NCBI GenBank assembly: GCA_964343105.1
Contig: CAYFHV010000002.1
Span: forward strand, 1 to 40,418
Direction of reading: 5' to 3'
Length of the DNA stretch: 40,418 nt
Source of the DNA: an uncultured Planctomycetia bacterium
GTDB taxonomy: Bacteria > Omnitrophota > Gorgyraeia > 1-14-0-20-64-10
Every line of letters begins with the position of its first letter. The stretch's first letter is position 1. The translations under genes and the position numbers were made by a program. Below, in pieces: positions 24,963 to 39,213 of this stretch. The notes beneath the pieces were generated by a model. It saw only the letters and a list, made by a program, of their open reading frames with translations. It was not told the origin of the DNA and searched no databases.

Positions 24963-25847
24963 ATGTCAACGCATCCGCATGACCTGCTAAGCGATCGGGC
25001 CGTTCGACCGCTGCTGATAGCGCTTTTTATCACCGTGGGGATCACGGTGCTGGAGATCGTGGTGGGTATTCTGTCGCACAGCTTGGCCCTCCTGGCGGAT
25101 GCGGGCCATATGGTTACAGATGCCGCCGCGCTGGTGATGTGTCTGGCTGCCTCCTGGATTGCCCGCCAGCCAGCGACCCACACCAAAACGTATGGTTTCT
25201 ACCGCACGGAGATTTTGGCGGCTTTCTTGAATGGCTTGACGCTCTGGTTGGTTGTCGTGTGGATCGTCACCGAAGCCGTCCATCGGTTGATTCGTCCTCC
25301 GGTTGTTCAAGCACCGATGATGTTGATGACGGCGATCATTGGTCTCGTCGCCAATCTTGGGTGCTCCTGGGTGTTGCAACGGTCGCAGAGCCAGAATCTT
25401 AATCTTCGAGGTGCCTATCTTCATGTCTTGGCCGATGCCTTAGGTTCAGTCGGTGTCATTGCCGCTGCAACAATTATCTGGACGACTGGCTGGCATCTGG
25501 CCGATCCCTTGGCCAGCCTCTTCGTTTGCCTCATCATTCTCTGGAGTTCGTGGAACCTGATCAGCCAATCGGTCAACATCTTGCTGGAAGGGGTGCCTGC
25601 CCATATCGATGTCACTGAAGTTGTGCGAGCCATACAGGGCATGACAGGGGTGCGATCGGTTCACGATGTACACATCTGGACGATTACCTCAGGGATGGAA
25701 GCGATGAGTGCGCATGTAGGAATCGAGAACCTAACCGATAGCCAAGATGTACTGGGCCGTCTCAACGCCCTTCTGTGCGAGCGGTTCCAGATCCACCACG
25801 CGACCATTCAGCTTGAAGGAGCTTCCCCAGATAGGTCCTTTAAATAA
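24963..25847 (+). CDS. czcD: cation diffusion facilitator family transporter (CzcD/ZitB-like)
   Basis: SHSLALLADAGHMVTDA and AYLHVLADALGSVGV metal-site motifs, six TM segments and a C-terminal cytoplasmic domain (VHDVHIWTITSG). Composition is already lower in G+C than the flanks. Confidence 0.88.
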   Translation: MSTHPHDLLSDRAVRPLLIALFITVGITVLEIVVGILSHSLALLADAGHMVTDAAALVMCLAASWIARQPATHTKTYGFYRTEILAAFLNGLTLWLVVVWIVTEAVHRLIRPPVVQAPMMLMTAIIGLVANLGCSWVLQRSQSQNLNLRGAYLHVLADALGSVGVIAAATIIWTTGWHLADPLASLFVCLIILWSSWNLISQSVNILLEGVPAHIDVTEVVRAIQGMTGVRSVHDVHIWTITSGMEAMSAHVGIENLTDSQDVLGRLNALLCERFQIHHATIQLEGASPDRSFK

Positions 25848-25852
25848 AGGTG

Positions 25853-25941
25853 ATGAAAAAACTCTTCGTTCGGACGTATGGGTGGCCGATGGGAGCACTA
25901 TTACACTACCTTGGCGGGGTTCCTCCGCCATCTGAATCGGG
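25853..25941 (+). repeat. R1 repeat, copy A (full length)
   Basis: Starts 6 nt after the CDF stop. The 5' module 25853-25887 matches copy B at 31/35 positions. The core 25880-25941 matches copy C at 58/62 positions (hand alignment). Contains the hairpin GGCGG-ggttcct-CCGCC. Confidence 0.85.
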
Positions 25942-26114: not shown

Positions 26115-26786
26115 ATGTCATCTCATCCTGAGAAAGAAGGGATTGGAACCGCGCTCCATGCAATTGCGCATGGCCTTGTTCAGACGTGGAAAAAAGGACT
26201 TAGAGAAAAACAACTTGTTTCTTCCGAAATTACGGATATACAACTCGAATTCAACCTTATCTTCGCTGCACTTTGGATAGCGAGCGTCGCATATGAGATG
26301 ACCACTGAAGATAAAGCAACCTTTGAGCGAAACGCCAAGGCAATGTATGACGAATTTCTTAAGGCATTAAGACAAGCTGAATCAGAACAAATGGGGCGAA
26401 GCGGACCATCAACGTTTCCGAGCCTCGGCGATGTCTTACAAAACGAAGAAGAGATTTCCAGAATTTGTAAGGAAATTCAGGCGGACGTAGAACGCGGGAC
26501 GGGGAACCGCAAGAGCATCGATCAGACGCTCCAGACGGGTTTCTCTACGATATTAGAATATTTGTTTCCGATCAGAGGACCGCGCTATCAGAAAGCTTGG
26601 AAGGATGGTGCTGCCAAGCTTTACGGTCCGACGTTTGACGTGTCACTAGAGCTCTATCGGGACTTGACTGGGAATGATCCAAAGACTGTCGAAGCGCTCC
26701 CGGCAGTCCTCGGGCTGAACATAATGTTGGCAGCTTCTTTTCCAGCGATACAAAAGACCTTAGCCGAATTTGGATATCATCCATAG
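26115..26786 (+). CDS. hypothetical protein (223 aa, predicted all-helical, no recognisable motif)
   Basis: Longest ORF in an A/T-richer stretch, with no competing ORF. Flanked by R1 copies A and B. Weak SD. Confidence 0.5.
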   Translation: MSSHPEKEGIGTALHAIAHGLVQTWKKGLREKQLVSSEITDIQLEFNLIFAALWIASVAYEMTTEDKATFERNAKAMYDEFLKALRQAESEQMGRSGPSTFPSLGDVLQNEEEISRICKEIQADVERGTGNRKSIDQTLQTGFSTILEYLFPIRGPRYQKAWKDGAAKLYGPTFDVSLELYRDLTGNDPKTVEALPAVLGLNIMLAASFPAIQKTLAEFGYHP

Positions 26787-26788: not shown

Positions 26789-26823
26789 ATGAAAAAACTC
26801 TTCGTTCGAACGATGGGGTGGCC
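26789..26823 (+). repeat. R1 repeat, copy B (5' module only)
   Basis: atgaaaaaactcttcgttcgaacgatggggtggcc starts 3 nt after the preceding stop. Similarity to copy A ends right after ggtggcc. Confidence 0.8.
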
Positions 26824-27084
26824 GTACACGCCAGTTCTACAGGACTGCCCTACGGGAAGATTATTCGCCATTCGTGGAGTTTGCGCGCTGGCTGGCCCGA
26901 ACGGAACGTCTTACGAGAGAGATGGTTGAATCCAGAAAGTCACGGATTTACCCGGGCTGATGGGTGAGAACCGCCTCCTTGTCAGGTTGGGTATCTTTAG
27001 AGGTGCACCTAACAAAATTTGGCAAGGGCGAACGCCCCAGCCCTGCACATTCATTGGTTCGCGGGGGCATCCCTGAATGGTTTT

Positions 27085-27117
27085 ATGTTAGACATTATGT
27101 CTAACATATGTTATACT
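27085..27117 (+). promoter_or_regulatory. TA operon promoter with perfect palindromic operator
   Basis: ATGTTAGACAT-T-ATGTCTAACAT (27085-27107) is a perfect 11-bp inverted repeat. TTAGAC (27088-27093) is -35-like and TGtTATACT (27109-27117) is an extended -10. GGAGGTGG SD, then ATG 27137. Confidence 0.6.
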
Positions 27118-27136
27118 TTTCTGTGGAGGTGGAAAA

Positions 27137-27370
27137 ATGAAAGCAGTCAATATTCGTGAATTGACTCACCACTTCTCAAGTTATCTTAGAGTGGTGAAGC
27201 GGGGGGAGCGTATTGTAGTCATGGAAAGGAGTTCGCCGGTGGCGGACTTGGTTCCTCATAACGAGAATTTGACTTCACCCGGCTGGAAACGGCTAATTCA
27301 GAAAATCCGAGTAAAAGGAGATGAGGCACTTTCTGAAACAACAACCCGTTTGCGAGCCGAGGAGCAATGA
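27137..27370 (+). CDS. type II antitoxin, Phd/YefM (prevent-host-death) family
   Basis: 77 aa. MKAVNIRELTHHFSSYLRVVKRGERIVVMERSSPVADLVP is the canonical Phd/YefM N-terminal fold pattern. ATGA overlap with the toxin gene. Confidence 0.8.
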   Translation: MKAVNIRELTHHFSSYLRVVKRGERIVVMERSSPVADLVPHNENLTSPGWKRLIQKIRVKGDEALSETTTRLRAEEQ

Positions 27371-27780
27371 GGGCGTTCGTTGACACGTCCTCGCTCTTCA
27401 AAAAATACGTCGAGGAGGATGGCTCGAAGGAATTGGATTCGCTGCTTCGGGAAGTTTCAGAAATCGCCGTTTCACCTGTAACGTGGCTCGAGATGAGTGC
27501 GGTAATCGCCAGGAGGCTGCGCGAAAAAACTTTGACTTCGCAACAGGCTGCCTGGCTCAAATCAGAGGCGCATAAAGATTTTCAGAGTTTTCATCGAGTG
27601 ATTTGGAACGAAGCTCTAGAAAAAACAGCAGCAGATCTCGTTTATGAGCATCCGCTTTCGACGCTTGATGCGATTCAGTTGGCTTCAGGGCTTCTCTCGA
27701 AGGCCGATCTCTTTGTGACATCGGATCAGGGGCTATTTGAGGAAGCGAAGAAGAGCGTTCGCAAGGCCGTGTGCATATGA
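27367..27780 (+). CDS. vapC: type II toxin, PIN-domain ribonuclease VapC
   Basis: 137 aa. Acidic PIN residues lie in FVDTSSL, WLEMSAV, LDAIQLA and VTSDQ. Confidence 0.85.
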   Translation: MRAFVDTSSLFKKYVEEDGSKELDSLLREVSEIAVSPVTWLEMSAVIARRLREKTLTSQQAAWLKSEAHKDFQSFHRVIWNEALEKTAADLVYEHPLSTLDAIQLASGLLSKADLFVTSDQGLFEEAKKSVRKAVCI

Positions 27781-27971
27781 AAGAGGTCGATAGCTTGAGG
27801 GGTTTTGATAAGCATCTACACAAATTGCTGGGAGCGCATCCGGAAGCAGCTCTGGAACATGCCAAGCTGTTCGCGGAGCTTCCAATTTCGAGTCAACTCG
27901 CCATCATGCGCCGGCGACGGGAATTGTGTCAGCGCCAAAGCTCTTCGCAGCCATGTTCTCCTCGTTCCTGA
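27771..27971 (+). pseudogene. R2 repeat copy 1: truncated 5' portion of an HTH(XRE)-type antitoxin-like gene
   Basis: 27796-27913 aligns with 29520-29637 (97/118 identical, hand count). Encodes RGFDKHLHKLLGAHPEAALEHAKLFAELPISSQLAIMRR, then loses the frame before any HTH. Confidence 0.5.
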
Positions 27972-28071
27972 TGAGGAACTCAACCGCCTCACCACGGCGT
28001 AAGATGTGTCCCTAAATGAAGCGTCCCTACTATCCTCATGGGACCATTTAGCGTAGCGTTAAGAGGTCGAC

Positions 28072-28695
28072 ATGAAGAAGATTCTCGTTGAATGTATCGG
28101 CACGTTCTTCCTCGTTCTGGTCGTCGGGCTGACAGCCATTGCCCCCGGTGCCGGGGCGATGGCTCCGTTAGCGATTGGGGCCATCCTGATGGTCATGGTG
28201 TATGCCGGCGGCCACATCTCTGGAGGTCATTACAATCCGGCGGTGACGCTTGCCGTGTGGCTCCGGGGCAAGTGCGACGCGAAGGACGTCCCATTGTACA
28301 TGGGAGCGCAAGTGGTTGGAGCGGTTATCGCAGCGCTCCTGGTAGGGTTCTGTAAGCGCGGGAGCATTGTCACGGCCCTGCAGCCCGCCGCGTTGCCGGC
28401 GCTCCTGATTGAGTTTGTGTTTACGTTTGCCCTGGCGTACGTTGTCCTGAATGTGGCGACTGCTAAGGAGACGGCCGGCAACTCCTACTTCGGCTTGGCG
28501 ATTGGATTGACGGTCATGGCCGCCGCTTATGCAGGAGGGAACATTTCTGGCGGGGCGTTTAATCCGGCTGTTGCCATCGGCATTACCCTAATGGGACTCA
28601 GTACGGCTGGCAATCTTTGGGTCTTCCTGGTGGGCAACTTGGGCGGCGGGGCGCTCGCTGCGTTCATCTTCCGTCTGACGAATCCGAACGACTAG
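28072..28695 (+). CDS. aqpZ: aquaporin / MIP-family channel (short, 207 aa)
   Basis: Two NPA boxes (HISGGHYNPAVTLA and NISGGAFNPAVAIG) and six hydrophobic helices. Confidence 0.88.
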   Translation: MKKILVECIGTFFLVLVVGLTAIAPGAGAMAPLAIGAILMVMVYAGGHISGGHYNPAVTLAVWLRGKCDAKDVPLYMGAQVVGAVIAALLVGFCKRGSIVTALQPAALPALLIEFVFTFALAYVVLNVATAKETAGNSYFGLAIGLTVMAAAYAGGNISGGAFNPAVAIGITLMGLSTAGNLWVFLVGNLGGGALAAFIFRLTNPND

Positions 28696-28700
28696 CGGAC

Positions 28701-28724
28701 TTATCCTCATCTATGTGAGGATAA
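28701..28724 (+). terminator. perfect 9-bp stem hairpin after the aquaporin gene (no U-tract)
   Basis: TTATCCTCA-tctatg-TGAGGATAA begins 6 nt after the stop. It is followed by aaagc, not a T run. Confidence 0.3.
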
Positions 28725-28742
28725 AAGCAGTCATCATGTCCC

Positions 28743-28834
28743 ATGAGTAAAACCATTTTCGTCCACGCATACGGGTGGCCGATGGGAGCACTATAACACT
28801 ACTTTGGCGGGGTTCCTCCGCTACCTGAATCGGG
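28743..28834 (+). repeat. R1 repeat, copy C
   Basis: The core 28773-28834 is 58/62 identical to copy A. The 5' part is diverged at the nucleotide level but reads MSKTIFVHAYGWPMGAL-stop versus MKKLFVRTYGWPMGALL in copy A. Confidence 0.8.
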
Positions 28835-28894
28835 CTGGAACCACCGTGCGGTGATCCTCTGCGGTTTCGGGTGGGCCACGCGTTGGCCGCCAGA

Positions 28895-28903
28895 TGGTAT
28901 AAT
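28895..28903 (+). promoter_or_regulatory. extended -10 promoter element for the DUF433/DUF5615 pair
   Basis: TGgTATAAT at 28895-28903, about 25 nt upstream of ATG 28928, with AGGAAGGAGA SD in between. Confidence 0.4.
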
Positions 28904-28927
28904 TGGGACCAGGAAGGAGATAGGAAC

Positions 28928-29137
28928 ATGACCGATCGGATTGTTTCTGACGTGAATATCTGTGGGGGTGAGCCGTGCGTGAAGGGGACCCGAATCCCCG
29001 TCAAGGTGGTCTTGAGCCACCTGGCAGCCGGCGATACCATTGAGGATTTGCGCAAGGATTTTCCAAACCTCACCGAAACAGACATTCGCGCTTGCCTTGA
29101 GTACGCCTCCTACCTGGCAGCCGAACACGTGGCCTGA
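28928..29137 (+). CDS. DUF433-family putative antitoxin
   Basis: 69 aa. CGGEPCVKGTRIPVKVVLSHLAAGDTIEDLRKDFPNLTETDIRACLEYA is the DUF433 pattern. Strong SD. The ORF-track start 28871 lacks an SD. Confidence 0.8.
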   Translation: MTDRIVSDVNICGGEPCVKGTRIPVKVVLSHLAAGDTIEDLRKDFPNLTETDIRACLEYASYLAAEHVA

Positions 29138-29484
29138 TGCCGCGTGCCATCCTGGATGAGAACGTCAGCCTCCAGGTAGCAGCCCGCCTCGAAGCATTAG
29201 GGTACGAAGTCACCGCCATCTCCAAGCACCCTGAGCGCGGGATGCAGGACGAAACTGTCTTTGCCCTTGCCAAAGGGTGCCTCCTCGTGACCCGTGATGC
29301 CCACTTCACCAACCCCCTCCGATTTCCATCTGCTGAAACAGGCGGCATTTTGTTCATCACCCATGGGAATCTTCGTGGACGCGATGAAGCCGAACTTGTC
29401 GAAAGATTCTTAAGGGATCATCGGTCCGAGGATTTTGCTGGCCACCTTGCGTTTCTCTCCCCTGCCGGATTCAGGATTCGATGA
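29137..29484 (+). CDS. DUF5615 (Mut7-C/PIN-like) putative toxin
   Basis: 115 aa. MPRAILDENVSLQVAARLEALGYEV...LLVTRDAHF matches the DUF5615 partner of DUF433 proteins. Its ATG shares 1 nt with the upstream TGA. Confidence 0.75.
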   Translation: MPRAILDENVSLQVAARLEALGYEVTAISKHPERGMQDETVFALAKGCLLVTRDAHFTNPLRFPSAETGGILFITHGNLRGRDEAELVERFLRDHRSEDFAGHLAFLSPAGFRIR

Positions 29485-29518
29485 GAAAGGAATCGGGTGA
29501 TCGGAGATCAACCGCTTC

Positions 29519-29758
29519 ATGAGAGGATTTGATAAGCACCTGCATGAATTGCTCGTGAAGCATCCAGAAGCAGCTCTTGAACACGCTAAGCTGTTTGCGG
29601 AACTTCCAATCTCCACCCAACTCGCCATCATGCGCCGCCATCGGCCGGCTTTTGGGCCTGACGGTCGAAGCCGGGAAGAAGCAACCCTTCATGGGGGCTG
29701 GGGCATTGAGCAACCTGGCCTACTTCCATCGGGTGAAGCTCAGTTTCATGCTCGATGA
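29519..29758 (+). pseudogene. R2 repeat copy 2: truncated HTH-antitoxin-like 5' fragment
   Basis: Encodes MRGFDKHLHELLVKHPEAALEHAKLFAELPISTQLAIMRR, then unrelated sequence. Paralogous to 27796-27913. Confidence 0.5.
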
Positions 29759-29924
29759 CACGACCTTCCGGTTCACCACCTATATCGGATTCTCAACCGC
29801 GATGGACATCCCCAAGATCGGCCTACTGGGCCGGATCGGCTTCTTCGACCGTTTCCGCCAGGTCTCCTTCCACCCCAAAGAGCAGTTTGTGGAGTTGATT
29901 ACACTGAGTTCCAAGGAGAGGTAG
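29691..29924 (+). CDS. possible small ORF or C-terminal gene remnant (unknown family)
   Basis: Frame 3 ORF (track 29577..29924). From ATG 29691 it reads MGAGALSNLAYFHRVKLSF...IGLLGRIGFFDRFRQVSFHPKEQFVELI. Looks protein-like, but it has no SD and abuts the R2 fragment in another frame. Confidence 0.3.
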   Translation: MGAGALSNLAYFHRVKLSFMLDDTTFRFTTYIGFSTAMDIPKIGLLGRIGFFDRFRQVSFHPKEQFVELITLSSKER

Positions 29925-29938: not shown

Positions 29939-30595
29939 GTGTCAGACGTGTGTGATGAAGGAAGTATAGCCACTAAACCAGTTGCCACAGAACAACCGGC
30001 TCCAGTAAGTACCCAGACCAAAGCAGCACCAGACCCGACCCTTCCCCCCACGGCTGGCCGGAGACCGAGCGGTGTCTTCGAAAAGTTTGGGGGTCCCCTA
30101 TTGGCTGCCGCAATTACTTCTATAACAGTGGTTGTCGCACATAGCTGGATCGTCCCGACTGTGGCTCGCCATCAAAGACGAATTGACCGAATGTATCAGG
30201 CCATGTTCGATGCGGAGCAGTCCGTGCGCCTCTTGTATGGGTATGCATGGAACGTGTGGAACGAGAGACGCAGGGGGGCGGGCGCAACCAATGCCCCGCT
30301 AGAAGATTTTCAGGAAGCCGAAGCAAAGGCGGCGAGTTTGACACTCCAACTCGCTCTTATTTTCGGCGATGATATAGCTGCTGACTGGGAGAGAGTTGTT
30401 CGAGGTTATCACGACGTTGCGTATCCGATTACGCATCCTGGTGAATTTCCGGTCGAACCCACAAAGCCGGAGATGAACGAAAGGTTAAATCCGCTTTCAC
30501 AGCGAGCTGGCGACGTGACTAGAAGGATTCAAGCCGTGATACGGGAGACCGAGGGCAGGCCGTGGTGGAGAGTTTTGCTTTCTCACGAGCGATGA
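29939..30595 (+). CDS. hypothetical membrane-anchored protein (218 aa)
   Basis: Pro/Thr-rich N-terminus, a single TM (LLAAAITSITVVVAHSWIV), then a helical ~130-aa domain. GTG start uncertain. Confidence 0.5.
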   Translation: MSDVCDEGSIATKPVATEQPAPVSTQTKAAPDPTLPPTAGRRPSGVFEKFGGPLLAAAITSITVVVAHSWIVPTVARHQRRIDRMYQAMFDAEQSVRLLYGYAWNVWNERRRGAGATNAPLEDFQEAEAKAASLTLQLALIFGDDIAADWERVVRGYHDVAYPITHPGEFPVEPTKPEMNERLNPLSQRAGDVTRRIQAVIRETEGRPWWRVLLSHER

Positions 30596-30697
30596 AATTC
30601 CTCTACGTAACGACTTTTGGATGACCGTATGTGCCACTTACTCGGGATAGTGTTGAAGCTGCTAAAGAAACTGAACGGGTTGGAGGATAATTAAGCC

Positions 30698-31117
30698 GTG
30701 CTTCTCGGGCGTCCTATGGGCCTGGGTGAAAAGATATTCTATGGAGCGACGCTCGCTCTTGGAATGCTAGCATTGGGTTTTACTATCCGTGGAGGGTATT
30801 TTGCGTGGACCGCGTTCCTGCTTGGATCACCCATCATTGCCACGATCGTTGGTGCATACTTTTGGATCCGCTTGGATGTGTGGCGGTCTGAGAAAACGAT
30901 CGAGACGCTTTCCAGTGAGGACGAAGCTATTAAGAGAGACTTATTTTCTCGACGAGCTGATTGCCGAATGGCGTTCGCTTTGCTAGCACTGGCTGCAGCG
31001 GCTCAGATATATTTATTAGGCTCGATATCGGAGCGACTTCACGCCATGGTTTTGCTGTTGCTCCCCCCTTCAGTCATCAACTGCGTAGCTCGATCAATGG
31101 AAGAGATTCCGAAATAA
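30698..31117 (+). CDS. hypothetical integral membrane protein (139 aa)
   Basis: GGAGG at 30682-30686 lies 11 nt before GTG 30698. Three to four hydrophobic helices. Confidence 0.5.
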   Translation: MLLGRPMGLGEKIFYGATLALGMLALGFTIRGGYFAWTAFLLGSPIIATIVGAYFWIRLDVWRSEKTIETLSSEDEAIKRDLFSRRADCRMAFALLALAAAAQIYLLGSISERLHAMVLLLLPPSVINCVARSMEEIPK

Positions 31118-31148
31118 GAAGATGTACAGTGAGAGAGGGAGGGAAAGA

Positions 31149-31343
31149 ATGAAACTGAAGAAACGAGACAAGTTTATTATGGGGGGAATATTGCTCGTTG
31201 CGATTACGAAGTTACCAACCTTACAACAGCAAACATTTGATGTTTCAGGTTTGATTGGTTTGATAATCATGGGTGCGATCGTTGGTTTAATTGGCTATGT
31301 AATGTTCGGAAGAGAGAGGAAGAAGCGAGAGGACAAGAAATGA
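31149..31343 (+). CDS. hypothetical small membrane protein (64 aa)
   Basis: GAGGGAGGGAAAGA SD directly upstream of ATG 31149. Two hydrophobic helices and a Lys/Arg/Glu-rich C-terminal tail. Confidence 0.45.
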   Translation: MKLKKRDKFIMGGILLVAITKLPTLQQQTFDVSGLIGLIIMGAIVGLIGYVMFGRERKKREDKK

Positions 31344-31392: not shown

Positions 31393-32703
31393 ATGAAGCG
31401 TCTCTACTTGGTTACCTACGGATGCCAGATGAATGTGCGGGATTCCGAGGAGGTGACCGGGCTTCTGCTGGAGCGGGGCTACAGGCTGACCGAGGCGGAG
31501 GGGGAGGCGGATGTGATCCTGTACAACACCTGCTCGGTGCGTAGCCACGCGGAGGACAAGGTCTGGTCGGAGCTGGGCCGGGTGCGGGCGATGAAGACGG
31601 CCCGGCCGGAGCTCATCATCGGGGTGATGGGCTGTATGGCCAAGGCCCAGCGGGGAGAGATCTTCCGCCGGATGCCGCACGTGGATTTCATCGCAGGGCC
31701 GGCGCAGCTCTACGAGGTGCCCGAACTCATCGAGTCGATCTACGAGGAGCGGCGGCCGATGATGGCGATTCAGGAGAAGGGGCGACGTGAGTTCCAGACC
31801 ATCTCCTTTCACACGGGCAAGGTGAGCGCCCTGGTCACCATCATGGAGGGGTGTGACAAGCTCTGCACCTACTGTGTCGTTCCGTACACGCGCGGGCCGG
31901 AGATCAGCCGGCCGCCGGAGCAGATCCTCGCGGAGGTGCGCGGGCTGGCGGCCGGGGGATACCGGGAGGTGATGCTGCTCGGGCAGAACGTGAACTCCTA
32001 CGGCAGGCGGCTTCCCGGCGAGCGGGGGAAGGCAACCCGCGCGGTCGGTTTTGCGGATCTTCTGGCTCAGGTGAACCAGGTGGAAGGGATCGAGCGGATC
32101 CGGTTCATCACCTCGCACCCGTGGGACGCGGCGGAGGAGCTATTCCGGGCGATGGGGGAGCTGGAGCATGTCTGCGAGCATCTGCATCTGCCGGTGCAGT
32201 CCGGTTCGGATGCGGTGCTCGAGAGGATGCGGCGGGGATACACCGCGGAGGAGTATCTGGAGAAGCTCAGGCTGCTGCGACGGACCGTGCCGGGAGTGGC
32301 GGTGACTACGGATCTCATCGTCGGATTCCCGGGGGAGACCGAGACCGATTTCGAGGCCACGGTCCGCCTGGCGCAAGAGGCGCAGTTCGATTCGGCTTTC
32401 GTCTTCTCCTATTCGCCCCGGCCGTTTGCCGCAGCTTCCCGGTGGCAGGACGATGTGCCTGCGGAGGTGAAGAGCCGGCGGCACCAGAGATTGCTGGCTC
32501 TGCAGGAGGAGATCTCGCGGCGGCGGGCGGAGGCCCTGATCGGGCAGGAGGTGGAGGTGCTGGTGGAATCGGAGGGGAGCGGGCGGAGCCGGACGAATCG
32601 GAAGGTCTACTTCTCGGCAGACTCTGCCGGTCCCGGCGATCTGGTGGAGGTGCGGGTGGGCGGGGTGCGTGGCCAGAGCCTTCTAGGAAATGTGGAATCC
32701 TAA
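31393..32703 (+). CDS. miaB: tRNA-2-methylthio-N6-dimethylallyladenosine synthase (radical SAM methylthiotransferase)
   Basis: LVTYGCQMNVRDSE (UPF0004 domain), radical-SAM GCDKLCTYCVVPYTRG, and a C-terminal TRAM domain. miaA is nearby. Confidence 0.9.
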   Translation: MKRLYLVTYGCQMNVRDSEEVTGLLLERGYRLTEAEGEADVILYNTCSVRSHAEDKVWSELGRVRAMKTARPELIIGVMGCMAKAQRGEIFRRMPHVDFIAGPAQLYEVPELIESIYEERRPMMAIQEKGRREFQTISFHTGKVSALVTIMEGCDKLCTYCVVPYTRGPEISRPPEQILAEVRGLAAGGYREVMLLGQNVNSYGRRLPGERGKATRAVGFADLLAQVNQVEGIERIRFITSHPWDAAEELFRAMGELEHVCEHLHLPVQSGSDAVLERMRRGYTAEEYLEKLRLLRRTVPGVAVTTDLIVGFPGETETDFEATVRLAQEAQFDSAFVFSYSPRPFAAASRWQDDVPAEVKSRRHQRLLALQEEISRRRAEALIGQEVEVLVESEGSGRSRTNRKVYFSADSAGPGDLVEVRVGGVRGQSLLGNVES

Positions 32704-33499
32704 GCGGTACGACGTACCTCAAGGGCCTCAGGTACGTCGTACCGAATTGGGTATCGTTGTTTTGGTTTTCATGGTCATGGCGTTGAGGGGCTCTCCGTCA
32801 TTTGCCGGTGAGGACCCGGGTTCTCTGCAGGCGGCCTTCTTGCGAGGGGAATACGAGACGGTGTTAACGGGCACGGCGCGCCAGCTTGGGGCGGGAGCGG
32901 AGCGGACGGATGAGATGCTGTACCTGCATGGCGTGTCGGCGCTGAAGCTCAGGGATTGGGAAACGGCCCGGGCCAGCTTGGGCCGATTGGTGCGGGAGTA
33001 TCCGGAGAGCTCCCTGGCCCCCCACGCCTGGCTGGCGATCGGGGACTCCTGGGCGGGATCCGGTGATCCGGAAAAGGCGGCGGAGGCCTATGCGCGCCTC
33101 GCCTCCGGGGACCGGGACACACCCCTGCTGCCGCAGGCCGTTTTCCGTCTGGGCAAGGCGCAGAGCGACCTGGGACAGTGGAGCCAGGCCCAGCGGTCGT
33201 TCGAGCGGGTGCTTAAGGAAGCGCCCGGCTCTGCGGAGGCCGCCTGGGCGCGGGAGATCCTCGATCGAGGGGATTTCTTCTTCACGGTGCAGGTCGGCGC
33301 CTTTGTGAGTCGTGCCAACGCCGTCAAGCTGGAGTCGGAGCTGCGGCGGCGGGGATACGAGCCGGAATTGAGCCAGACCTCCACGCAGGGCAAGGTTTTT
33401 CATCGGGTGCGGGTGGGTCGATTCGAGCGCCGGGAAGAGGCCCAGGCGCAGGCCGAGCAGCTCCGGAAGGAAGGTTTTCCTGCCAAGCTCTTCCCCTAG
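32690..33499 (+). CDS. secreted TPR/YbgF-like protein with C-terminal SPOR domain
   Basis: Signal-like N-terminus (GIVVLVFMVMALRGSPSFA), TPR-like repeats, and C-terminal FFTVQVGAFVSRANA...FHRVRVGRFERREEAQAQAEQLRKEGF, which is the SPOR pattern. TTG 32747 is an alternative start downstream of the hairpin. Confidence 0.75.
   Translation: MWNPKRYDVPQGPQVRRTELGIVVLVFMVMALRGSPSFAGEDPGSLQAAFLRGEYETVLTGTARQLGAGAERTDEMLYLHGVSALKLRDWETARASLGRLVREYPESSLAPHAWLAIGDSWAGSGDPEKAAEAYARLASGDRDTPLLPQAVFRLGKAQSDLGQWSQAQRSFERVLKEAPGSAEAAWAREILDRGDFFFTVQVGAFVSRANAVKLESELRRRGYEPELSQTSTQGKVFHRVRVGRFERREEAQAQAEQLRKEGFPAKLFP
32705..32744 (+). promoter_or_regulatory. perfect 15-bp inverted repeat (hairpin, 10-nt loop) immediately after the miaB stop
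   Basis: CGGTACGACGTACCT (32705-32719) and AGGTACGTCGTACCG (32730-32744) are exact reverse complements. A T-rich stretch (gttgttttggtttt) follows within about 15 nt. Confidence 0.5.
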
Positions 33500-33521
33500 C
33501 ACCACAGAGCTGCTGGCGATT

Positions 33522-34442
33522 GTGGGGCCCACCGGCGTCGGCAAGAGCGATGTTGCCGTGGCGATCGCGCGGCAGATTCCCTCCTCCGCCGGAGGCGGAT
33601 TCGCCTCTGGTGCGGAGATCGTCGTAGTTGATTCCATGCAGGTTTACCGCGGGATGGACGTCGGGACCAGCAAACCCCCGGCCTCGATTCGGCAGGAGAT
33701 CCCGCACCATGGGCTGGACCTGGCCGATCCGGAGGAGGAATTCGATGTGGCCCGCTACGTCCGGTCCGTTCGGCCCCATCTGGAGGAGATCCGCGGACGG
33801 GGCCGGCTGCCGCTCCTGGTGGGTGGTTCCGGCCTCTACCTGCGCGCCCTGCTGGATGGGCTCTGCGAGGCGCCGGGAGGGAATGCGCTGCTGCGGGAGG
33901 AGCTTCTGGTGGAGGGAGCCCGTGCGGGATCGGAGAAGCTGCATGCCCGGCTGCAAGCGGTGGATCCGGAGGCGGGTACGAGGATCCACCCCAACGATCT
34001 CCGGAGGATCGTGCGCGCCCTGGAGGTGTTTCTTGCGACGAGCAAGCCGATGACCGTTTGGCAGAAGGAGACCCCTCGGCCTTTCGATCCGGGCAGCGCG
34101 ATCCGGATGATAGGGCTGACGGCCGACCGGGACTGGCTTTACCGCAGGGTGGAGGAGCGGGTGGATCGGTGGCTGGAGGGGGGATGGCTGGAGGAGGCGC
34201 GGCGCCTGTCGGCCAGCCCCCTGAGCCGGACCGCCCGGGCAGCGCTCGGCTACGGAGAGCTGTTCGATTTCCTGGAGGGGATGCTCGACTGGGCCGAGAC
34301 GCGCCGCCGGATCCATCAGCGGAGCCGGCGGTACGCCAAGCGCCAATGGGCCTGGTTCCGGCAGGATCAGAGGATCGTCTGGGTGCAGGCGGGGCAGCGC
34401 CCTGCGGAGGAGGTCGCGGAGAGGATCCTCTCCTCGGCGTAA
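33522..34442 (+). CDS. miaA: tRNA dimethylallyltransferase
   Basis: P-loop GPTGVGKS, DSMQVYRGMDVGTSKP and LVGGSGLYLRALLDG. The true start is probably upstream of GTG 33522 (in-frame ...TELLAIV precedes it). Confidence 0.88.
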   Translation: MGPTGVGKSDVAVAIARQIPSSAGGGFASGAEIVVVDSMQVYRGMDVGTSKPPASIRQEIPHHGLDLADPEEEFDVARYVRSVRPHLEEIRGRGRLPLLVGGSGLYLRALLDGLCEAPGGNALLREELLVEGARAGSEKLHARLQAVDPEAGTRIHPNDLRRIVRALEVFLATSKPMTVWQKETPRPFDPGSAIRMIGLTADRDWLYRRVEERVDRWLEGGWLEEARRLSASPLSRTARAALGYGELFDFLEGMLDWAETRRRIHQRSRRYAKRQWAWFRQDQRIVWVQAGQRPAEEVAERILSSA

Positions 34443-34443
34443 G

Positions 34444-35703
34444 ATGGAAAAGGCCTTCCTGGTGAATGTGGAGATCCGGGAGAGGAGGCAGCGCAGCGGC
34501 TGGCCGCAGGCGGAGACCGCCGCGGAGCTGCGTGAGTTGGCCCGCTCAAGCCGCCTGGAAGTCCTGGAGGAGGTCACGGTGCGGCGCAATCGCGCGACCG
34601 CGGCGCTCCTGATCGGGAAGGGCAAGGGCGAGGAGATCCATTCCCGGTGCCATGCGTCCGGAGCGGAGGCGGTTGTGTTCGGGAAGGATCTGAGCTCCGC
34701 GCAGCAGAGGAACCTGGAGGACCTTCTGGGAGTCAAGGTGATCGACCGAACGCAGCTGATCCTGGACATCTTTGCCCGCCGGGCGAATTCGCAGGAGGGA
34801 CGGGTGCAGGTGGAGCTGGCCCAGCTGGAGTATCTGCTCCCGCGGCTGGCAGGCAAGGGGATCCTGCTGTCGCGGCTGGGAGGCGGAATCGGGACACGGG
34901 GCCCGGGAGAGCAGAAGCTGGAGGTGGACCGCCGCCGGATCCGCGTGAGGATCGGACGGCTGCGCCAGGAGCTGCAGGAGATCCGGGAGCGCAGAGAGAT
35001 TGCCCGGCGCAAGAGGGAGAAGGAGGCGATTCCTTCCATCGCGATCATCGGGTACACCAACGCCGGCAAGAGCAGTCTGCTCAACGCCCTCACGCAGGCG
35101 GGGGCGCAAGCGAGGGACGAGCTCTTCACGACCCTGGACCCTCTGACACGACGGTTACGGTTGCCGAGCCATCAGCAGATCCTGCTGACCGACACGGTCG
35201 GCTTCTTGAGGGAGCTGCCGCATCACCTGGTGGATGCGTTCCGTGCGACGCTGGAGGAGGTGACCCAGAGCGATCTCCTCCTGCACGTGCTGGACGCATC
35301 CGGTTCACTCCCTGAGGAGAGGGCCTCTGCGGTGCGGGAGGTCCTCGAGCTTCTGGGGGCTGAGGGGAAGCCCATTGTGCTGGCCCTGAACAAGGTGGAC
35401 CTGCTGGGCCCGGAGGAGAGACGGGGGGCGAGTCGGCGCTTCCCGGAAGGGGTTGCGGTTTCGGCGGCGACCGGGGAAGGATTGGATCATCTGGTGGGGC
35501 GGATCGACAGCCTGCTCGCCAGCCGGCTGGAGGAGGCGCTCATCCGGCTTCCTCCGGCTCAGGGCGCATGGCTCACGCGAATCTACAAGGAAGGCCAGGT
35601 CCTCCATCGGCGTGACGGCGAGGAAGCTGTGGAGCTCAGGGCACGACTGCCGCACCGTCTGTTGGGTCAGCTGGCTAAGGCCGGACTCCTGTCGGGGAAC
35701 TGA
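34444..35703 (+). CDS. hflX: GTPase HflX
   Basis: HflX N-terminal domain, G-domain IAIIGYTNAGKSSLLNALT, DTVGF and NKVD. Confidence 0.92.
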   Translation: MEKAFLVNVEIRERRQRSGWPQAETAAELRELARSSRLEVLEEVTVRRNRATAALLIGKGKGEEIHSRCHASGAEAVVFGKDLSSAQQRNLEDLLGVKVIDRTQLILDIFARRANSQEGRVQVELAQLEYLLPRLAGKGILLSRLGGGIGTRGPGEQKLEVDRRRIRVRIGRLRQELQEIRERREIARRKREKEAIPSIAIIGYTNAGKSSLLNALTQAGAQARDELFTTLDPLTRRLRLPSHQQILLTDTVGFLRELPHHLVDAFRATLEEVTQSDLLLHVLDASGSLPEERASAVREVLELLGAEGKPIVLALNKVDLLGPEERRGASRRFPEGVAVSAATGEGLDHLVGRIDSLLASRLEEALIRLPPAQGAWLTRIYKEGQVLHRRDGEEAVELRARLPHRLLGQLAKAGLLSGN

Positions 35704-35721
35704 AGCAGCCGAATGAAGTCA

Positions 35722-35749
35722 TTGACAGAGCAAATGATCGTGGTAGACT
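35722..35749 (+). promoter_or_regulatory. sigma-70-type promoter of the hrcA operon
   Basis: TTGACA (35722-35727), a 16-nt spacer, then TAGACT (35744-35749). Confidence 0.6.
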
Positions 35750-35757
35750 TAAGGCAG

Positions 35758-35784
35758 TTAGCACTCCAGCATCAAGAGTGCTAA
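35758..35784 (+). promoter_or_regulatory. CIRCE operator (HrcA binding site)
   Basis: TTAGCACTC-cagcatcaa-GAGTGCTAA is a perfect match to the CIRCE consensus TTAGCACTC-N9-GAGTGCTAA. It lies 9 nt upstream of the hrcA ATG. Confidence 0.92.
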
Positions 35785-35793
35785 TAGTCTAAA

Positions 35794-36825
35794 ATGAACA
35801 GTCGCGAAAGAAACCATAAGATCCTTCAGGCTATCATCCTTACCTACGCGGAGTTCGGAGCCCCGGTAGGTTCGGAGTTCCTCCTGGAGAGGTATCCGCT
35901 TGGAGTGAGCTCTGCGACGATCAGGAACGTGATGGCGGAGCTCGAAGAACAGGGGCTCCTCACGCATCCGCACACCTCGGCAGGGAGGGTCCCGACTGAC
36001 CAGGGATACCGGTACTACGTGGATCTGCTGATGGAGAGAGACCGGGTCGGGGGGGAGGACGAGGAACGGATCGGGCGGCTTCAGGAATCGAGGGAGCGGG
36101 AGCCGGCGGATTTGCTGGAGGAGGCCTCGGCAATCCTTTCGGAGATGACGCAGAAGGCGGGAGTCGCTCTTGTGCCTCAGCTCCTGCACGGCTCTTTCCG
36201 GAGGATGGAGCTGATTCCGCTGGGACCGAGGGAGATGGTGGCGGTTCTGGTCTCGGGGGAGGGAATGGTGAGGCACGCCGTTTGGGAGCTGGAGGAAGCT
36301 GCTGGCGCGGAGGAGCTGGAAGCGCTGGTCGGCTTCCTTCAGAGAGAGCTGGAGGGGATGCCGCTCGCGCAGGCGGCGGAGGGCCTCCGGGCGGGAATTC
36401 AGGAGGCCGCTCAGCCGCACCTCGATCGGTGGAAGGATTCAACCGAGGTGGGACGCCTGGTGACTGCGCTGTTCCAGGAGGAGCCCTCGGTGGTTCTCGA
36501 GGGGACGAGCTGGATCCTGGAGGCGCCGGAATTCAGGGATGTGGCGCGGACGCGCAGGCTCCTGAAGGGGCTGGAGAGCAAATCGGAGCTCATCGGAATC
36601 CTCCAGCGGGACCTGTGGGCGGACGACGTGAAGCTCCACATCGGTTCGGAGAACCGGGGCACCTCGCTGGTCGATTGCAGCATCGTCGCCGCGCCGTACC
36701 GATTGAGGGGCGGGATGGTGGGGACGATCGGTGTGCTGGGGCCGACCCGGATGGATTATCCCCGGGTGACCGGCCTTGTCCAGAGGATGGGACAGTGTCT
36801 GACTCAGCTTCTTCAGGACCGCTGA
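35794..36825 (+). CDS. hrcA: heat-inducible transcription repressor HrcA
   Basis: N-terminal winged-helix GAPVGSEFLLERYPLGVSSATIRNVMAELEEQGLLTHPHTSAGRVPTDQGYRYYVD. Confidence 0.93.
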   Translation: MNSRERNHKILQAIILTYAEFGAPVGSEFLLERYPLGVSSATIRNVMAELEEQGLLTHPHTSAGRVPTDQGYRYYVDLLMERDRVGGEDEERIGRLQESREREPADLLEEASAILSEMTQKAGVALVPQLLHGSFRRMELIPLGPREMVAVLVSGEGMVRHAVWELEEAAGAEELEALVGFLQRELEGMPLAQAAEGLRAGIQEAAQPHLDRWKDSTEVGRLVTALFQEEPSVVLEGTSWILEAPEFRDVARTRRLLKGLESKSELIGILQRDLWADDVKLHIGSENRGTSLVDCSIVAAPYRLRGGMVGTIGVLGPTRMDYPRVTGLVQRMGQCLTQLLQDR

Positions 36826-37337
36826 AGGCGGAGAAGAAGAGCCCGGAGCATAAGGCGGACCCGCAGGAGGAGATCCGGCGGATGCGGGACCAGATGCTCC
36901 GGCTTCAGGCGGACTTCGAGAACGCGAGGAAGCGGTGGGTCAAGGAGCACGCCGAGATTCAGGAAACCGCAAACGCCGATCTGGTCCGGCAGCTCCTGGA
37001 GGTCTTGGACGATCTGGGCCGCGCACTCTCCTCCGGGGGGGAGGCCTCGACGGAGGCAGGGGGCTTCCGCAAGGGGGTGGAGATGATCCACCGGCGGCTC
37101 GAGGAGCTGCTGGAGTCGTACGGGCTGACCGCCATAGAAGCGGTGGGGCAGCCGTTCGATCCCACCCGGCACGAGGCGGTGGCCCATGAGGTCAGCGATT
37201 CGGTTCCGGAGTCCACGGTGATCGCGGAGCTCAGGCGGGGTTACGTCATGAACGGGAGGGTGCTTCGCCCTTCGGTGGTCAAGGTATCTGTGCGTGAGAA
37301 AGGAGGTTCGTCGGATGGCAAGGGCAATCGGGATTGA
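36795..37337 (+). CDS. grpE: nucleotide exchange factor GrpE
   Basis: [21 protein letters not shown] and [19 protein letters not shown] 36795 is chosen as the start. The ORF-track start 36282 lies inside hrcA in another frame. Overlaps the dnaK start by 23 nt. Confidence 0.82.
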
Positions 37338-39210
37338 TCTGGGGACATCCAACTCAGCGGCGGCAGTGGTGGAGGGCGGGCGGCCGGTGATCATCCCCTC
37401 CGCGGAGGGGATGACGGTGGGGGGCAAGGCGTTCCCCTCGTACGTGGCCTTCACCAAGGACGGCCAGCGGCTGGTGGGGGAGCCGGCCCGGCGGCAGGCG
37501 GCGGTGAACCCGGAGGGGACGGTTCTGGCCGCCAAGAGGAAGATGGGGACGGACCACCTGTTCCGCATTCATGGCAAGGATTACACCCCGCAGCAGATCT
37601 CGGCCTTCATCCTGCAGAAGATCCGGCAGGATTCGGAGGCGTTCCTCAACAGCCCGATCACGGAGGCGGTCGTCACGGTGCCCGCGTACTTCAACGACAA
37701 CCAGAGGCAGGCGACGAAGGACGCCGGGGAGATCGCGGGACTGAAGGTGCTGCGCATCATCAACGAGCCGACGGCGGCCTGCCTGGCGTACGGCCTCGAC
37801 AAGGCGGAGCAGGAGCAGAAGATCCTGGTGTTCGACCTGGGAGGGGGCACCCTCGACGTGACGATCATGGAGATGTACTACGTTAAGGAAGAGAAGACCT
37901 CCGGTTTCGAGGTGCTGTCCACCAGCGGCGACACGCAGCTGGGCGGCACCGATATGGACAACGCCCTCATTGACCACGTCGCGGCGGAGTTCAAGCGGGA
38001 GACCGGGATCGATCTCCGGAACGACCGGATGGCGCACCAGAGGGTCCGGGAGGCGGCGGAGAAGGCGAAGATCGAGCTCTCGAACGTGCTCCAGACCGAT
38101 CTGAACCTGCCCTTCATCACGGCGGATGCGAGCGGCCCGAAGCACCTGACGATGGCGATCACGCGGGCGAAGCTGGAGGAGCTGATCCAGCCGATCATCG
38201 AACGGTGCCGCCACCCGCTGGAGCAGGCGCTGGCGGATGCGAAGCTCACCGCCGGCGGGATCGGCAAGGTGATCCTGGTCGGCGGGCCCACGCGGATGCC
38301 GATGGTCCAGAAATTCGTCGAGGAGCTGGTGGGTTCGAAGAAGGTGGTTCGTGGGATCGACCCGATGGAGTGTGTCGCGATGGGGGCGGCCATCCAGGCG
38401 GCGGCGCTCAAGGGGGAGATCAAGGACATCCAGCTCTTGGACGTGACCCCGCTTTCGCTGGGGATCGAGACCCTGGGAGGGGTGTTGACCCAGCTCATTG
38501 AGCGCAACACCACGATCCCGACGCGGAAATCGCAGGTTTTCTCCACGGCGGAGGACAGCCAGCCGGCGGTCACGGTCCGGGTGCTGCAGGGGGAACGCCC
38601 GATGGCCAGCGACAACGTGGAGCTGGGGCGGTTCGACCTGGTCGGGATCCCGCCGGCCCCGCGCGGTATCCCGCAGATCGAGGTCACCTTCGACATCGAC
38701 GCAAACGGGATCGTGCACGTCTCCGCCAAGGACAGGGGGACCGGCAAGGAGCAATCGATGCGGATCACCGCTCCCCGGAAGCTGGACAAGTCCGAGATCG
38801 ACCGGATGGTCCAGGAGGCCCAGAGGTTTGCCCAGGAGGATCAGCGCCGGAAGGAAGCCGTGGAGCTGAAGAACCAGGCCGACACGCTGGCCTACACCAC
38901 GGAGCGGGCGCTGAAGGAGTTCGGCGACAAGGTGCCGGCGGGTGACCGCGCTCAGGTGGAGGAGAAGCTCAAGCAGCTGAGGGAGGCGCTGAAGGGCTCG
39001 GACTCTGCGGCGGTCCAGCGGGCGATGGAGGAGCTCACGCGGGCCTCCCACAAGCTGGGGGAGGAGGTGTACAAGGCCGCCGCGGCCAAGGGGCAGGCAG
39101 GGGCCCAGCCGGGCGCGAACGGGCCGACCGGCGGTTCCGAGAAGAAGTCCGAGCAGGGCAAGGAGGATGTCATCGACGCCGAATTCAAGGCCGACGACGA
39201 AAAGAAATAG
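37315..39210 (+). CDS. dnaK: molecular chaperone DnaK (Hsp70)
   Basis: [30 protein letters not shown] and the C-terminal lid. GAAAGGAGG SD lies before ATG 37315. Confidence 0.95.
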
Positions 39211-39213
39211 CGC

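Follow-up and report, generated by a model that had tools for sequence, protein, structure and literature searches.

The low-GC stretch on the 5' side of miaB in the 40,418-nt stretch of DNA that we analysed (the window) is likely to be a tandem array of four small cassettes of 0.8-2 kb each, which arose through successive site-specific insertions at the start of miaB, with the R1 repeats as the seams between them. The integrating enzyme was probably a large serine recombinase (LSR). The insertion process is a known one, but it takes an unusually small form here, with no recombinase in the cassettes. The first-pass annotation had described two unrelated toxin-antitoxin (TA) pairs within one repeat-defined frame (R1, TA pair, R2); the frame is an att-site scar together with an orphaned antitoxin gene, and is not a dedicated device for swapping TA modules. 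All four cassettes are co-directional with miaB, and the features of the locus are as follows.

24963..25847, + strand: cation-diffusion-facilitator gene (context), low in GC, between the epimerase gene and R1-A, with no R1 to its left
25853..25941, + strand: R1-A; left arm MKKLFVRTYG, central TG at 25883-25884, right arm of type a (GCCGATGGGAGCACTAT...)
26115..26786, + strand: 223-aa ORF, cargo of cassette 1
26789..26850, + strand: R1-B; left arm MKKLFVRTMG, TG at 26819-26820, right arm of type c (GCCGTACACGCCAGTTCTACAGGAC)
26851..27054, + strand: cassette leader, 88% conserved with the relative L120, where it precedes higB
27084..27105, no strand: perfect palindrome TGTTAGACATTATGTCTAACA, upstream of phd
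27137..27780, + strand: TA1; Phd-like antitoxin (27137-27370) and PIN/VapC toxin (27367-27780)
27796..28002, + strand: R2-1, higA-like antitoxin pseudogene; its ATG at 27776 overlaps the vapC stop
28072..28695, + strand: gene for a major intrinsic protein (aquaporin-like), the final one in cassette 2
28743..28834, + strand: R1-C; left arm MSKTIFVHAYG, TG at 28776-28777, right arm of type a, in-frame TAA
28928..29484, + strand: TA2; DUF433 (28928-29137) and DUF5615, a PIN-like protein (29137-29484)
29519..29644, + strand: R2-2, truncated higA-like gene
29645..29924, + strand: probable 3' fragment of some gene; another frame reads as a 115-aa ORF (29577-29924)
29939..30595, + strand: 218-aa ORF, the final gene in cassette 3, with a stop that overlaps the ATG of R1-D (ATGA)
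30592..30680, + strand: R1-D; left arm MKFLYVTTFG, TG at 30622-30623 (reads as a TGA stop), right arm of type g
30698..31343, + strand: 139-aa and 73-aa membrane-like ORFs, cargo of cassette 4; lowest-GC stretch (0.44-0.50)
31393..32703, + strand: functional miaB (UPF0004, Radical_SAM, and TRAM domains), with the Cys11-codon TG at 31423-31424

The stretch containing the cation-diffusion-facilitator gene has a GC content of 0.54-0.58, against 0.65-0.68 in the flanks, and this gene may be foreign. At the other end, miaB codons 1-10 (31393-31422) lie at the edge of the low-GC island and were probably supplied by the last cassette. Family searches gave no match over the cut-off for the 223-aa ORF, and none for the fragment at 29645..29924 or its 115-aa ORF.

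R1 occurs four times in the window, at 25853, 26789, 28746 (ATG at 28743), and 30592, and the true start of miaB, at 31393, is a further member of this family; the first-pass annotation had counted three copies and missed copy D (30592-30627). It had otherwise placed the R1 and R2 repeats and the spacers correctly (313 and 15 nt around TA1, 93 and 35 nt around TA2), and had rightly taken R1 for the 5' end of an ORF (M-K-x-x-F-V-x-T-Y-G-W-P), which proves to be miaB-like. Each R1 is composed of about ten miaB-like first codons (M-K-x-L-F-V-x-T-Y-G), an invariant TG, and a cassette-specific right arm. The four sites and miaB share M-[KS]-x-x-[FY]-[VL]-x-T-[YFM]-G followed by TG, and differ at synonymous and conservative positions. 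Within the window, the translated motif matched nowhere but at these five positions. There were about 30 matches, none on the minus strand, in 400 kb of loci fetched via R2, and in about 70 more distant miaB loci it matched once, at the true miaB start, in about 30 and missed the rest. R1 is a miaB start that has been moved away from its gene and fused to the end of a cassette; it is not a frame dedicated to TA pairs.

The two TA pairs were confirmed by profile matches. In TA1, the PIN match is strong (E 4.9e-12) and the Phd match weak (E 5.8e-5 in Pfam and 6e-4 for TIGR01552, both below the cut-off), and the small antitoxin ORF overlaps the PIN toxin ORF by 4 nt, in the manner of type II VapBC/Phd-PIN systems. 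In TA2, the adjacent DUF433 (E 1.9e-24) and DUF5615 (E 3.7e-15) genes abut at 29137, where the stop codon of one meets the start codon of the other; TA activity of this pair is assumed from its family annotation. As had been claimed, the two cargos belong to unrelated domain families.

A repeat, a TA pair, and a second repeat follow one another twice within 3 kb, which could have come about by segmental duplication of an ordinary gene neighbourhood followed by divergence, but the cargos are unrelated, and the left flanks agree only in part. R1-B and R1-C match only over the 36-nt miaB-like part (67%) and their right arms differ; thus TA1 and TA2 share no single left flank. The longer R1-A/R1-C pair (25851-25941 and 28744-28834) is 82% identical, with 95% identity over 40 nt of the right arms, both of type a. 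The earlier idea of cassettes bounded by repeats holds; R1 bounds all of them, including those carrying no TA pair (the 223-aa ORF and the 139/73-aa ORFs), and in other genomes the type-c right arm and leader lie behind unrelated left arms. These cross-genome junctions already contradict duplication, which we regard as extremely improbable.

The junctions are sharp. Among the four contexts of type c (R1-B, L006, L120, and L143), the 30 nt preceding TG are 52% identical and the 40 nt following it 93%; the corresponding values are 60% and 95% for type a, and 53% and 95% for type h. A jump of this kind at TG is expected of a site-specific crossover. An inner dyad, TAYGGN-TG-NCCRTA, surrounds the dinucleotide; symmetry of the distal half-sites between left and right arms is weak, none being clear. 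An invariant central dinucleotide, imperfect inverted half-sites, and the lack of long identity are traits of LSR att sites. SCC-like arrays made by LSRs also have direct repeats that contain target-gene sequence and separate tandem elements, beside a reconstituted target gene, a pattern found, with an intact miaB, at the four R1 of the window and in L008, L014, L105, L111, L118, and L120.

R1 might instead have been copied for a function of its own, as a small leader ORF or a module for translational coupling to the downstream gene. Its ATGs do lie 2-5 nt past the stop of the preceding ORF or overlap it (26786/26789; ATGA at 30592 and in L006). Such coupling to the preceding gene is, however, predicted by integration as well, since every left arm must at one time have served to express miaB. 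R1-C and R1-D contain in-frame stops (TAA and TGA), the ORFs diverge wholly past about 12 codons, and protein and RNA family searches gave no match, all of which makes this explanation highly improbable.

Related groundwater genomes have similar arrays 5' of miaB with different cargo: rhodanese and then a Zeta toxin in L008, MazE-Doc in L014, HigBA in L118, L120, and L107, nucleotidyltransferase-like ORFs (named by eye) in L111 and L105, and an ABC transporter (precomputed Pfam) in L156. Every R1-type site found in them is on the miaB strand. The right arm of R1-D is 81% identical to L014 5400-5458, just after the Doc toxin gene. The near-identical contigs L001-L003 showed no cassette polymorphism, and they give no sign of mobility at present.

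No recombinase gene was found in the 40-kb window, either by reading the ORFs in full from 24 to 37.4 kb or by a recombinase phmmer search of all ORFs of at least 100 aa. A candidate family for the dedicated recombinase is seen in relatives. In L009, which has the closest miaB (73% identity) and is syntenic downstream, a 571-aa protein with Resolvase, Recombinase, and Zn_ribbon_recom domains has its stop codon within miaB codons 12-14. Homologues with 45-56% identity end likewise in L149, L150, L151, L154/155, L156, L158-163, and L164; an LSR gene ends inside the miaB start in L009 and in nine of ten further homologue loci. The junctions seen adjacent to these genes are all of TG-YCAR types. 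No complete LSR element with both ends was recovered among the loci collected, and so none yielded a P' arm to set beside the GCCGTA-type right arms of the window.

Small, promoterless-looking, co-oriented, TA-rich cassettes also resemble chromosomal integron arrays, and dusA islands likewise replace the 5' end of a gene, so R1 might be the site of a tyrosine recombinase (IntI with attC, a dusA-type integrase, or XerCD with dif mimics). A Phage_integrase gene does lie 10 kb from the site in L150. Against such a system, the gene consistently adjoining the replaced miaB 5' end in relatives encodes a serine recombinase and not a tyrosine integrase of the DAI family. A phmmer search with a single XerD query had no match among 1,983 ORFs (stop to stop, at least 100 aa) of the array loci included in it, and no IntI was found next to the array (ORFs of 24-37.4 kb read, and the same query run on window and array-locus ORFs of at least 100 aa). 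On neither strand was R1 DNA more prone to fold than its shuffled versions (z -1.6 to +1.7), with no sign of an attC hairpin. The earlier statement that no integron is present thus holds, and a tyrosine system seems to us very unlikely.

A further explanation dispenses with a dedicated recombinase: homologous or illegitimate recombination using miaB-start homology, or decay of larger elements after gene loss. It would fit a window without a recombinase gene. The left arms of R1-A and R1-B are 89% identical, which a simple integration model does not predict. Displaced miaB fragments vary in length, with long ones of 14-40 codons in L014, L111, L112, L149, and L151 and of about 70 codons in L097, implying other crossover points or other processes; and the replacement of higB (see below) clearly used variable breakpoints. 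On the other hand, identity breaks at one dinucleotide in every right-arm family tested, the dyad encloses this TG, and a single cassette start follows four different left arms, each time with the join at this very position. We therefore consider this explanation unlikely, while giving it some weight.

Under site-specific integration, a circular cassette would bear an attP-like site made of a P arm (a start codon and about ten miaB-like codons), a central TG, and a P' arm. Crossover with the resident miaB start at the Cys11-codon TG would fuse the P arm to the miaB body, so that miaB is kept intact, and would strand the former start upstream, joined to the P' arm, as R1. The Trp or stop codon in 'YGWP' or 'YG*P' would then come from the G or A after TG, contributed by the P' arm. 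The most likely enzyme is an LSR of the family abutting miaB in relatives, acting in trans; the window cassettes encode none.

R2 has a different origin. As had been suggested, it represents the 5' end of a gene for an HTH antitoxin: the two copies (27796-27920 and 29520-29644, 81% identical) correspond to the first 41 or so codons of a 100-aa HigA-like (HTH_3/HTH_31) gene, whose usual partner is a Gp49/HigB-like toxin. Both are degenerate. R2-1 retains the first 41 codons and the 3' end (27934-28002) and is frameshifted because of an internal deletion of about 95 nt relative to L120; R2-2 is truncated after about codon 41 and continues into unrelated sequence. The parent family is narrow, with 32 representatives after clustering at 50%. 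Elsewhere, about 50 full-length copies of 99-100 aa come after a 113-aa toxin of the Gp49 family, the two genes overlapping at ATGA, and the intact pair is present at about 40 other loci; the window has only the higA remnants and no Gp49 toxin gene. Other partners 5' of R2 are phd-vapC, hicBA behind a 15-codon higB stub, RelE with an HTH protein, and an orphan HigA.

The exchange is visible in L120 (epimerase - R1c - leader - higB - higA - about 0.95 kb - miaB), which reads as a one-cassette version of the window locus. L120 and L143 have higB, between a window-like left flank (88% identical) and R2 (84%), in place of the phd-vapC of the window and L006. Homology between the window and L120 ends at 27054, and homology with the phd-vapC unit of L135 starts at 27087, within the palindrome, a likely operator. 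TA exchange between conserved flanks, as first proposed, thus stands for TA1 and fails as a general TA frame. The breakpoints of higB replacement differ between loci, which points to illegitimate, not site-specific, recombination. R2 is a higA in decay, its cognate toxin gene having been replaced, and not a recombination site. Both TA-bearing cassettes would derive from cassettes with a Gp49/HigB-like toxin and the 100-aa antitoxin; the toxin gene would have been swapped for a different complete pair (phd-vapC or DUF433-DUF5615), and the orphaned higA would then decay, in a layer separate from R1 integration.

Composite islands of the SCC/ECC type (SCCmec, Enterococcus cassette chromosome) form at the 3' end of rlmH via the LSRs CcrAB/CcrC. 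Like the window, they show tandem accretion at one end of an intact target gene, direct repeats with its terminal codons between elements, and recombinase-less 'pseudo' elements, presumably mobilised in trans. The window cassettes are far smaller, TA-dominated, and known here from sequence alone, and they enter at the 5' end, so that each has to bring along a start codon and the codons for the N terminus. In the HigB(Gp49/DUF891)-HigA(XRE HTH) type II family, the R2 parent shows the classic toxin-first higBA order, just 3' of the toxin gene with a 4-nt overlap, whereas both window copies are non-functional remnants without one. Chromosomal integrons share co-oriented, TA-rich cassettes of 0.5-2 kb, each bounded by a recombination site, and a recombinase acting in trans (for the window, as proposed); the window array has no IntI, attC hairpin, or attI, half of its site is target-gene coding sequence, and it lies 5' of, and reads into, a housekeeping gene.

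Burkholderia phage JC1 integrates by a serine recombinase into the 5' end of rimO, where a phage-borne ATG keeps RimO in frame with 6 of its first 10 residues changed; in related prophages the gene for the LSR of about 550 aa overlaps the target gene (PMC9144972). In the miaB system, too, the target lies within about ten codons of the start of a gene for a radical-SAM methylthiotransferase, an ATG and N-terminal codons brought by the element would keep the frame, and, in relatives, the recombinase gene overlaps its target and encodes an enzyme of similar size. It differs in the gene (miaB, not rimO), in scale (recombinase-less cassettes of 0.8-2 kb, four deep, against a 61-kb phage), and in its uncultivated groundwater hosts. 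The L009 recombinase is only about 30% identical to the best-matching phage integrases in the phage collection with which it was compared. Islands with dusA-specific integrases also enter the 5' end of a tRNA-modification gene and supply a replacement 5' end (PMC4482086); theirs are single large islands with tyrosine integrases encoded beside the site, in contrast to an array of mini-cassettes.

We tentatively raise a broader reading, possible though in our view somewhat doubtful: an integron-like gene-capture platform, in which a clade of LSRs docks at the miaB-start TG (Cys11 codon) and shuffles recombinase-less cassettes of about 0.7-2 kb in trans, each with a mimic of the miaB start. The array would be a community-wide pool of TA/defence genes in Omnitrophota-like groundwater bacteria, and new TA pairs could land safely in resident toxin genes, with orphan antitoxins left behind. 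If true, such a platform would be previously undescribed, with miaB always rebuilt and translationally coupled to the newest cassette.

Our finding gives the repeat pattern a mechanistic account, as likely seams of site-specific insertions in the opening codons of an important gene for tRNA modification. It also provides a clear natural case of toxin genes overwritten by other TA pairs with the antitoxin surviving, which bears on the turnover of TA repertoires. If the cassettes are truly mobilised in trans, the system would amount to an integron equivalent run by serine recombinases, in groundwater phyla about which little is known, and its naturally compact att sites and recombinase family with a defined, conserved target would be of interest to genome engineers.

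Upstream of miaB (31393-32703), the GC fraction of the window drops to 0.44-0.60 between about 24950 and 31390, versus 0.65-0.68 in the flanks, and all plausible genes of this segment are oriented towards miaB. The first-pass annotation had described two repeats there, R1 and R2. Both were borne out by a repeat finder and by alignments, and the ORFs and spacers agreed with our ORF reading; the three named copies of R1 stand, and the tally was one short, as a fourth copy, R1-D, had been overlooked. The features are as follows.

24963-25847, cation-efflux (CDF) gene, Pfam-supported
25853, start of R1-A (with R1-C, a longer match of 91 nt, 82% identity)
26789, start of R1-B
27137-27780, phd-vapC pair, TA1 (Phd, Pfam E 5.8e-5, weak and below the cut-off; PIN domain of VapC, 4.9e-12)
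27796-27920, R2-1 (81% identical to R2-2)
28746, R1-C as placed by the repeat finder
28928-29484, DUF433-DUF5615 pair, TA2 (Pfam E 1.9e-24 and 3.7e-15)
29520-29644, R2-2
30592, start of R1-D
31393-32703, miaB, Pfam-supported, as is a MIP channel gene in the region

The CDF gene has a cassette-like low GC content, yet has no R1 on its left.

R1 is a displaced start of miaB. The four translated copies read MKKLFVRTYGWP, MKKLFVRTMGWP, MSKTIFVHAYGWP and MKFLYVTTFG*P, and the genuine MiaB N-terminus reads MKRLYLVTYGCQ. The translated start motif has five matches in the window, the four R1 copies and the miaB start, and none elsewhere. Of about 70 miaB loci from further afield, it matched about 30, only at the true start, and missed the others. 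Lineage-related loci (L-numbers denote public or metagenomic loci compared with the window) have additional copies upstream of miaB: L008 has two YGWP sites (2895 and 3935) before miaB at about 4829; L014 has a 24-codon duplicate of the miaB start at 4595, before miaB at 9632, and a degenerate site over the Doc stop, near 5373, with a right arm 81% identical to that of R1-D; and L006 has a single site overlapping the ParE stop codon. The motif has about 30 matches in 400 kb of metagenomic loci retrieved via R2 and not via miaB; none is on the minus strand, and many lie shortly upstream of a genuine miaB. In L004/L087 (13669-14087, 406-kb contig), a 14-codon miaB-start fragment lies just 5' of a lone DUF433 gene; since no miaB was found in the 20 kb retrieved, it seems that such cassette remnants can also be present away from miaB.

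Rfam (24.8-31.6 kb, E-value mode) returned a chance IRES match and nothing else, and ARAGORN detected neither tRNA nor tmRNA, which rules out R1 as an RNA gene or as an att site derived from a tRNA. A hairpin of attC or IS200 type was also rejected, as single-stranded folds of both strands were no better than those of shuffled sequences.

When all sites were aligned, anchored on the Cys/Trp/stop codon, each consisted of a left arm that codes for the start of MiaB, an invariant TG, and a right arm. The left arms vary chiefly at synonymous or conservative positions, and the right arms sort into families; the real miaB continues after TG with YCARATGAAY. Whether R1 has a W or a stop codon is decided simply by the base with which the right arm opens.

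Right-arm families, with identity over 30 nt to the left and 40 nt to the right of TG for the groups compared
Type a: begins GCCGATGGGAGCACTAT; R1-A, R1-C; left 60%, right 95%
Type c: begins GCCGTACACGCCAGTTCTACAGGAC; R1-B, L006, L120, L143; left 52%, right 93%
Type d: begins GCCGTTGTTCC
Type e: begins ACCATAGTGGTGCAATACCTGGAC
Type f: begins GCCATAGGTGCTACT
Type g: begins ACCGTATGTGCC
Type h: begins YCAGATGGAYACG; two L156 sites; left 53%, right 95%

Identity thus breaks sharply at TG, around which lies the dyad TAYGGN-TG-NCCRTA; this is the mark of conservative site-specific recombination in which the crossover is very short. R1-A (25853-25882) and R1-B (26789-26818) have left arms that are 89% identical, other left arms being about 50% alike; this likeness is not expected from a simple insertion model and could stem from gene conversion or from reshuffling within the array.

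R2 is the 5' part of a HigA-like antitoxin gene. A first protein search with R2 returned only ORFs of 48-72 aa. The idea that R2 derives from a long gene was rejected when a metagenome scan revealed an intact 100-aa gene; about 50 intact genes of 99-100 aa start with MRGFDKHLHELLEAHPEAALEHAKLFAELPLPTQLAIMRRRRKLSQRALAKKL, end with VLLVPDEELxRIA, and carry HTH_3/HTH_31 domains. The gene upstream of the intact copies is nearly always a Gp49/DUF891 toxin gene (113 aa) that they overlap by ATGA, and the two form a module of the higBA type. The family is narrow (32 representatives at the 50% clustering level). R2-1 is a higA-like gene frameshifted by a net deletion of about 95 nt, and R2-2, which breaks off after about codon 41, is fused there to part of another gene. 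In L142 (2198-2480; also protein P0005), the 5' part of R2 is joined in frame to a MazE/AbrB-like antitoxin 3' end; as the latter resembles the Doc partner in L014 (4683-4958), this fusion is a putative further chimeric antitoxin.

The claim that unrelated toxin-antitoxin pairs are swapped between fixed flanks holds for TA1. The relative L120, with the same chromosomal context, has the order epimerase, R1 type c, leader, higB, higA, about 0.95 kb, miaB. Window 26816-27054 is 88% identical to L120 704-942, and R2-1 is 84-87% identical to the L120 higA. Between these shared flanks, L120 and L143 have the higBA promoter and higB where the window and L006 have a putative palindromic operator, phd and vapC. 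The R1 site of L120 directly follows the epimerase gene, unlike in the window with its cation-efflux gene. The perfect 21-nt palindrome upstream of phd (27084-27105; TGTTAGACATTATGTCTAACA) probably serves as the operator for Phd. L135/L136 have the phd-vapC-higA trio too, located between proB and proA, with higA intact and no R1; homology of its phd-vapC unit with the window starts at 27087, within the palindrome. Elsewhere, higA is preceded by hicBA behind a 15-codon higB stub (L110) by RelE and an HTH protein (L114, L140, L144), or by an orphan 92-aa HigA (L004/L087, L142). Because the length of the higB remnant 5' of higA varies from locus to locus, the replacements look like illegitimate events, tolerated since the toxin was removed, rather than the work of a site-specific system. 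The single frame proposed for both pairs does not hold, as the right arms of R1-B and R1-C differ, and no 'ancestral' counterpart of TA2 was found. Nor did strain comparison reveal cargo polymorphism: exact-protein look-ups with VapC gave three near-identical contigs of identical arrangement, and those with MiaB gave no matches.

A dedicated recombinase, also raised in the first-pass annotation, was found abutting miaB in relatives and not in the window, where neither the ORFs read (24-37.4 kb) nor phmmer revealed one. The phmmer screen of array-locus ORFs, with XerD and Hin queries, turned up a single serine recombinase, in L009, and no tyrosine recombinase. By its miaB, L009 is the closest public relative (73% identity), and it is syntenic downstream. 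The recombinase, of 571 aa, combines Resolvase, Recombinase and Zn_ribbon_recom domains, and its ORF crosses the miaB start, stopping at the TGA inside CAG-ATG-A. Over 600 proteins belong to its family at E <= 1e-20, and many of them bear the label Omnitrophota. The same ending at a miaB start or displaced miaB fragment was seen in 9 of 10 further loci or locus groups (including L149, L150, L151, L154/155, L156, L158-163 and L164), the sole exception being L153 (Velamenicoccus). In L009 (1860-1980), L150, L154 and L158-L164, the ORFs traverse the miaB-start mimic in a different frame and stop at a TGA within miaB codons 12-14; the conserved C-terminus (...CILxPTxxR*) is therefore specified by att-site sequence, and excision would alter it. 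The order recombinase, miaB, miaA, hflX, hrcA, grpE, dnaK, dnaJ in L154 matches the downstream synteny of the window (SPOR/TPR protein, miaA, hflX, hrcA, grpE, dnaK). The order from miaB through the SPOR/TPR protein to dnaJ is conserved (window 31393-40300; L007-L009, L154), and synteny breaks exactly at the miaB start.

No left end (attL) of a recombinase-bearing element was found in the fetched flanks of L150, L151, L154, L158 and L164, and a viral-contig scan for a free attP with the recombinase alignment gave one contig, cut off ahead of the 3' end. Because the far end of these elements was not recovered, that the family acts with GCCGTA-type right arms is only inferred. In L156 (6544-11190), a 4.6-kb ABC-transporter cassette (binding protein, permease, ATPase) directly follows the serine recombinase gene, bounded by two miaB-start sites with right arms 95% identical. 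In another array (L105 178-921), an IS200/RAYT-like (HUH Y1 transposase-like) ORF lies immediately 5' of a displaced miaB fragment.

The favoured reading of the array is one integration after another at the miaB start, with attL-type and hybrid junctions left behind. The cassettes are, in order, the 223-aa ORF; the leader, phd-vapC, higA pseudogene and MIP gene; DUF433-DUF5615, the higA stub, a gene fragment and a 218-aa ORF; and the 139-aa and 73-aa ORFs. A cassette would supply the start of the live miaB, and each left arm would move together with the cassette upstream of it; the left arms after higA-bearing cassettes in L107 and L141 are identical at 26 of 30 positions. Each R1 start abuts or overlaps the preceding stop codon, which fits the need for continued miaB translation. 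The model leaves unexplained the R1-A/R1-B likeness, the longer displaced miaB fragments of some loci (14-40 codons; about 70 in L097), the CDF gene lacking a left R1, and the zero polymorphism among near-identical contigs.

Tandem recombinase-less elements at one gene end, as in the window array, are known from SCC/ECC composite islands. In the literature searched, neither miaB as a serine-recombinase target nor arrays of toxin-antitoxin mini-cassettes at miaB were described. The nearest documented case is phage JC1, whose ATG keeps RimO in frame with 6 of the first 10 residues changed; in related prophages the integrase gene overlaps rimO (PMC9144972). The dusA islands also replace the 5' end of a tRNA-modification gene, but use tyrosine integrases (PMC4482086). 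The feature is real and mechanistically interpretable.
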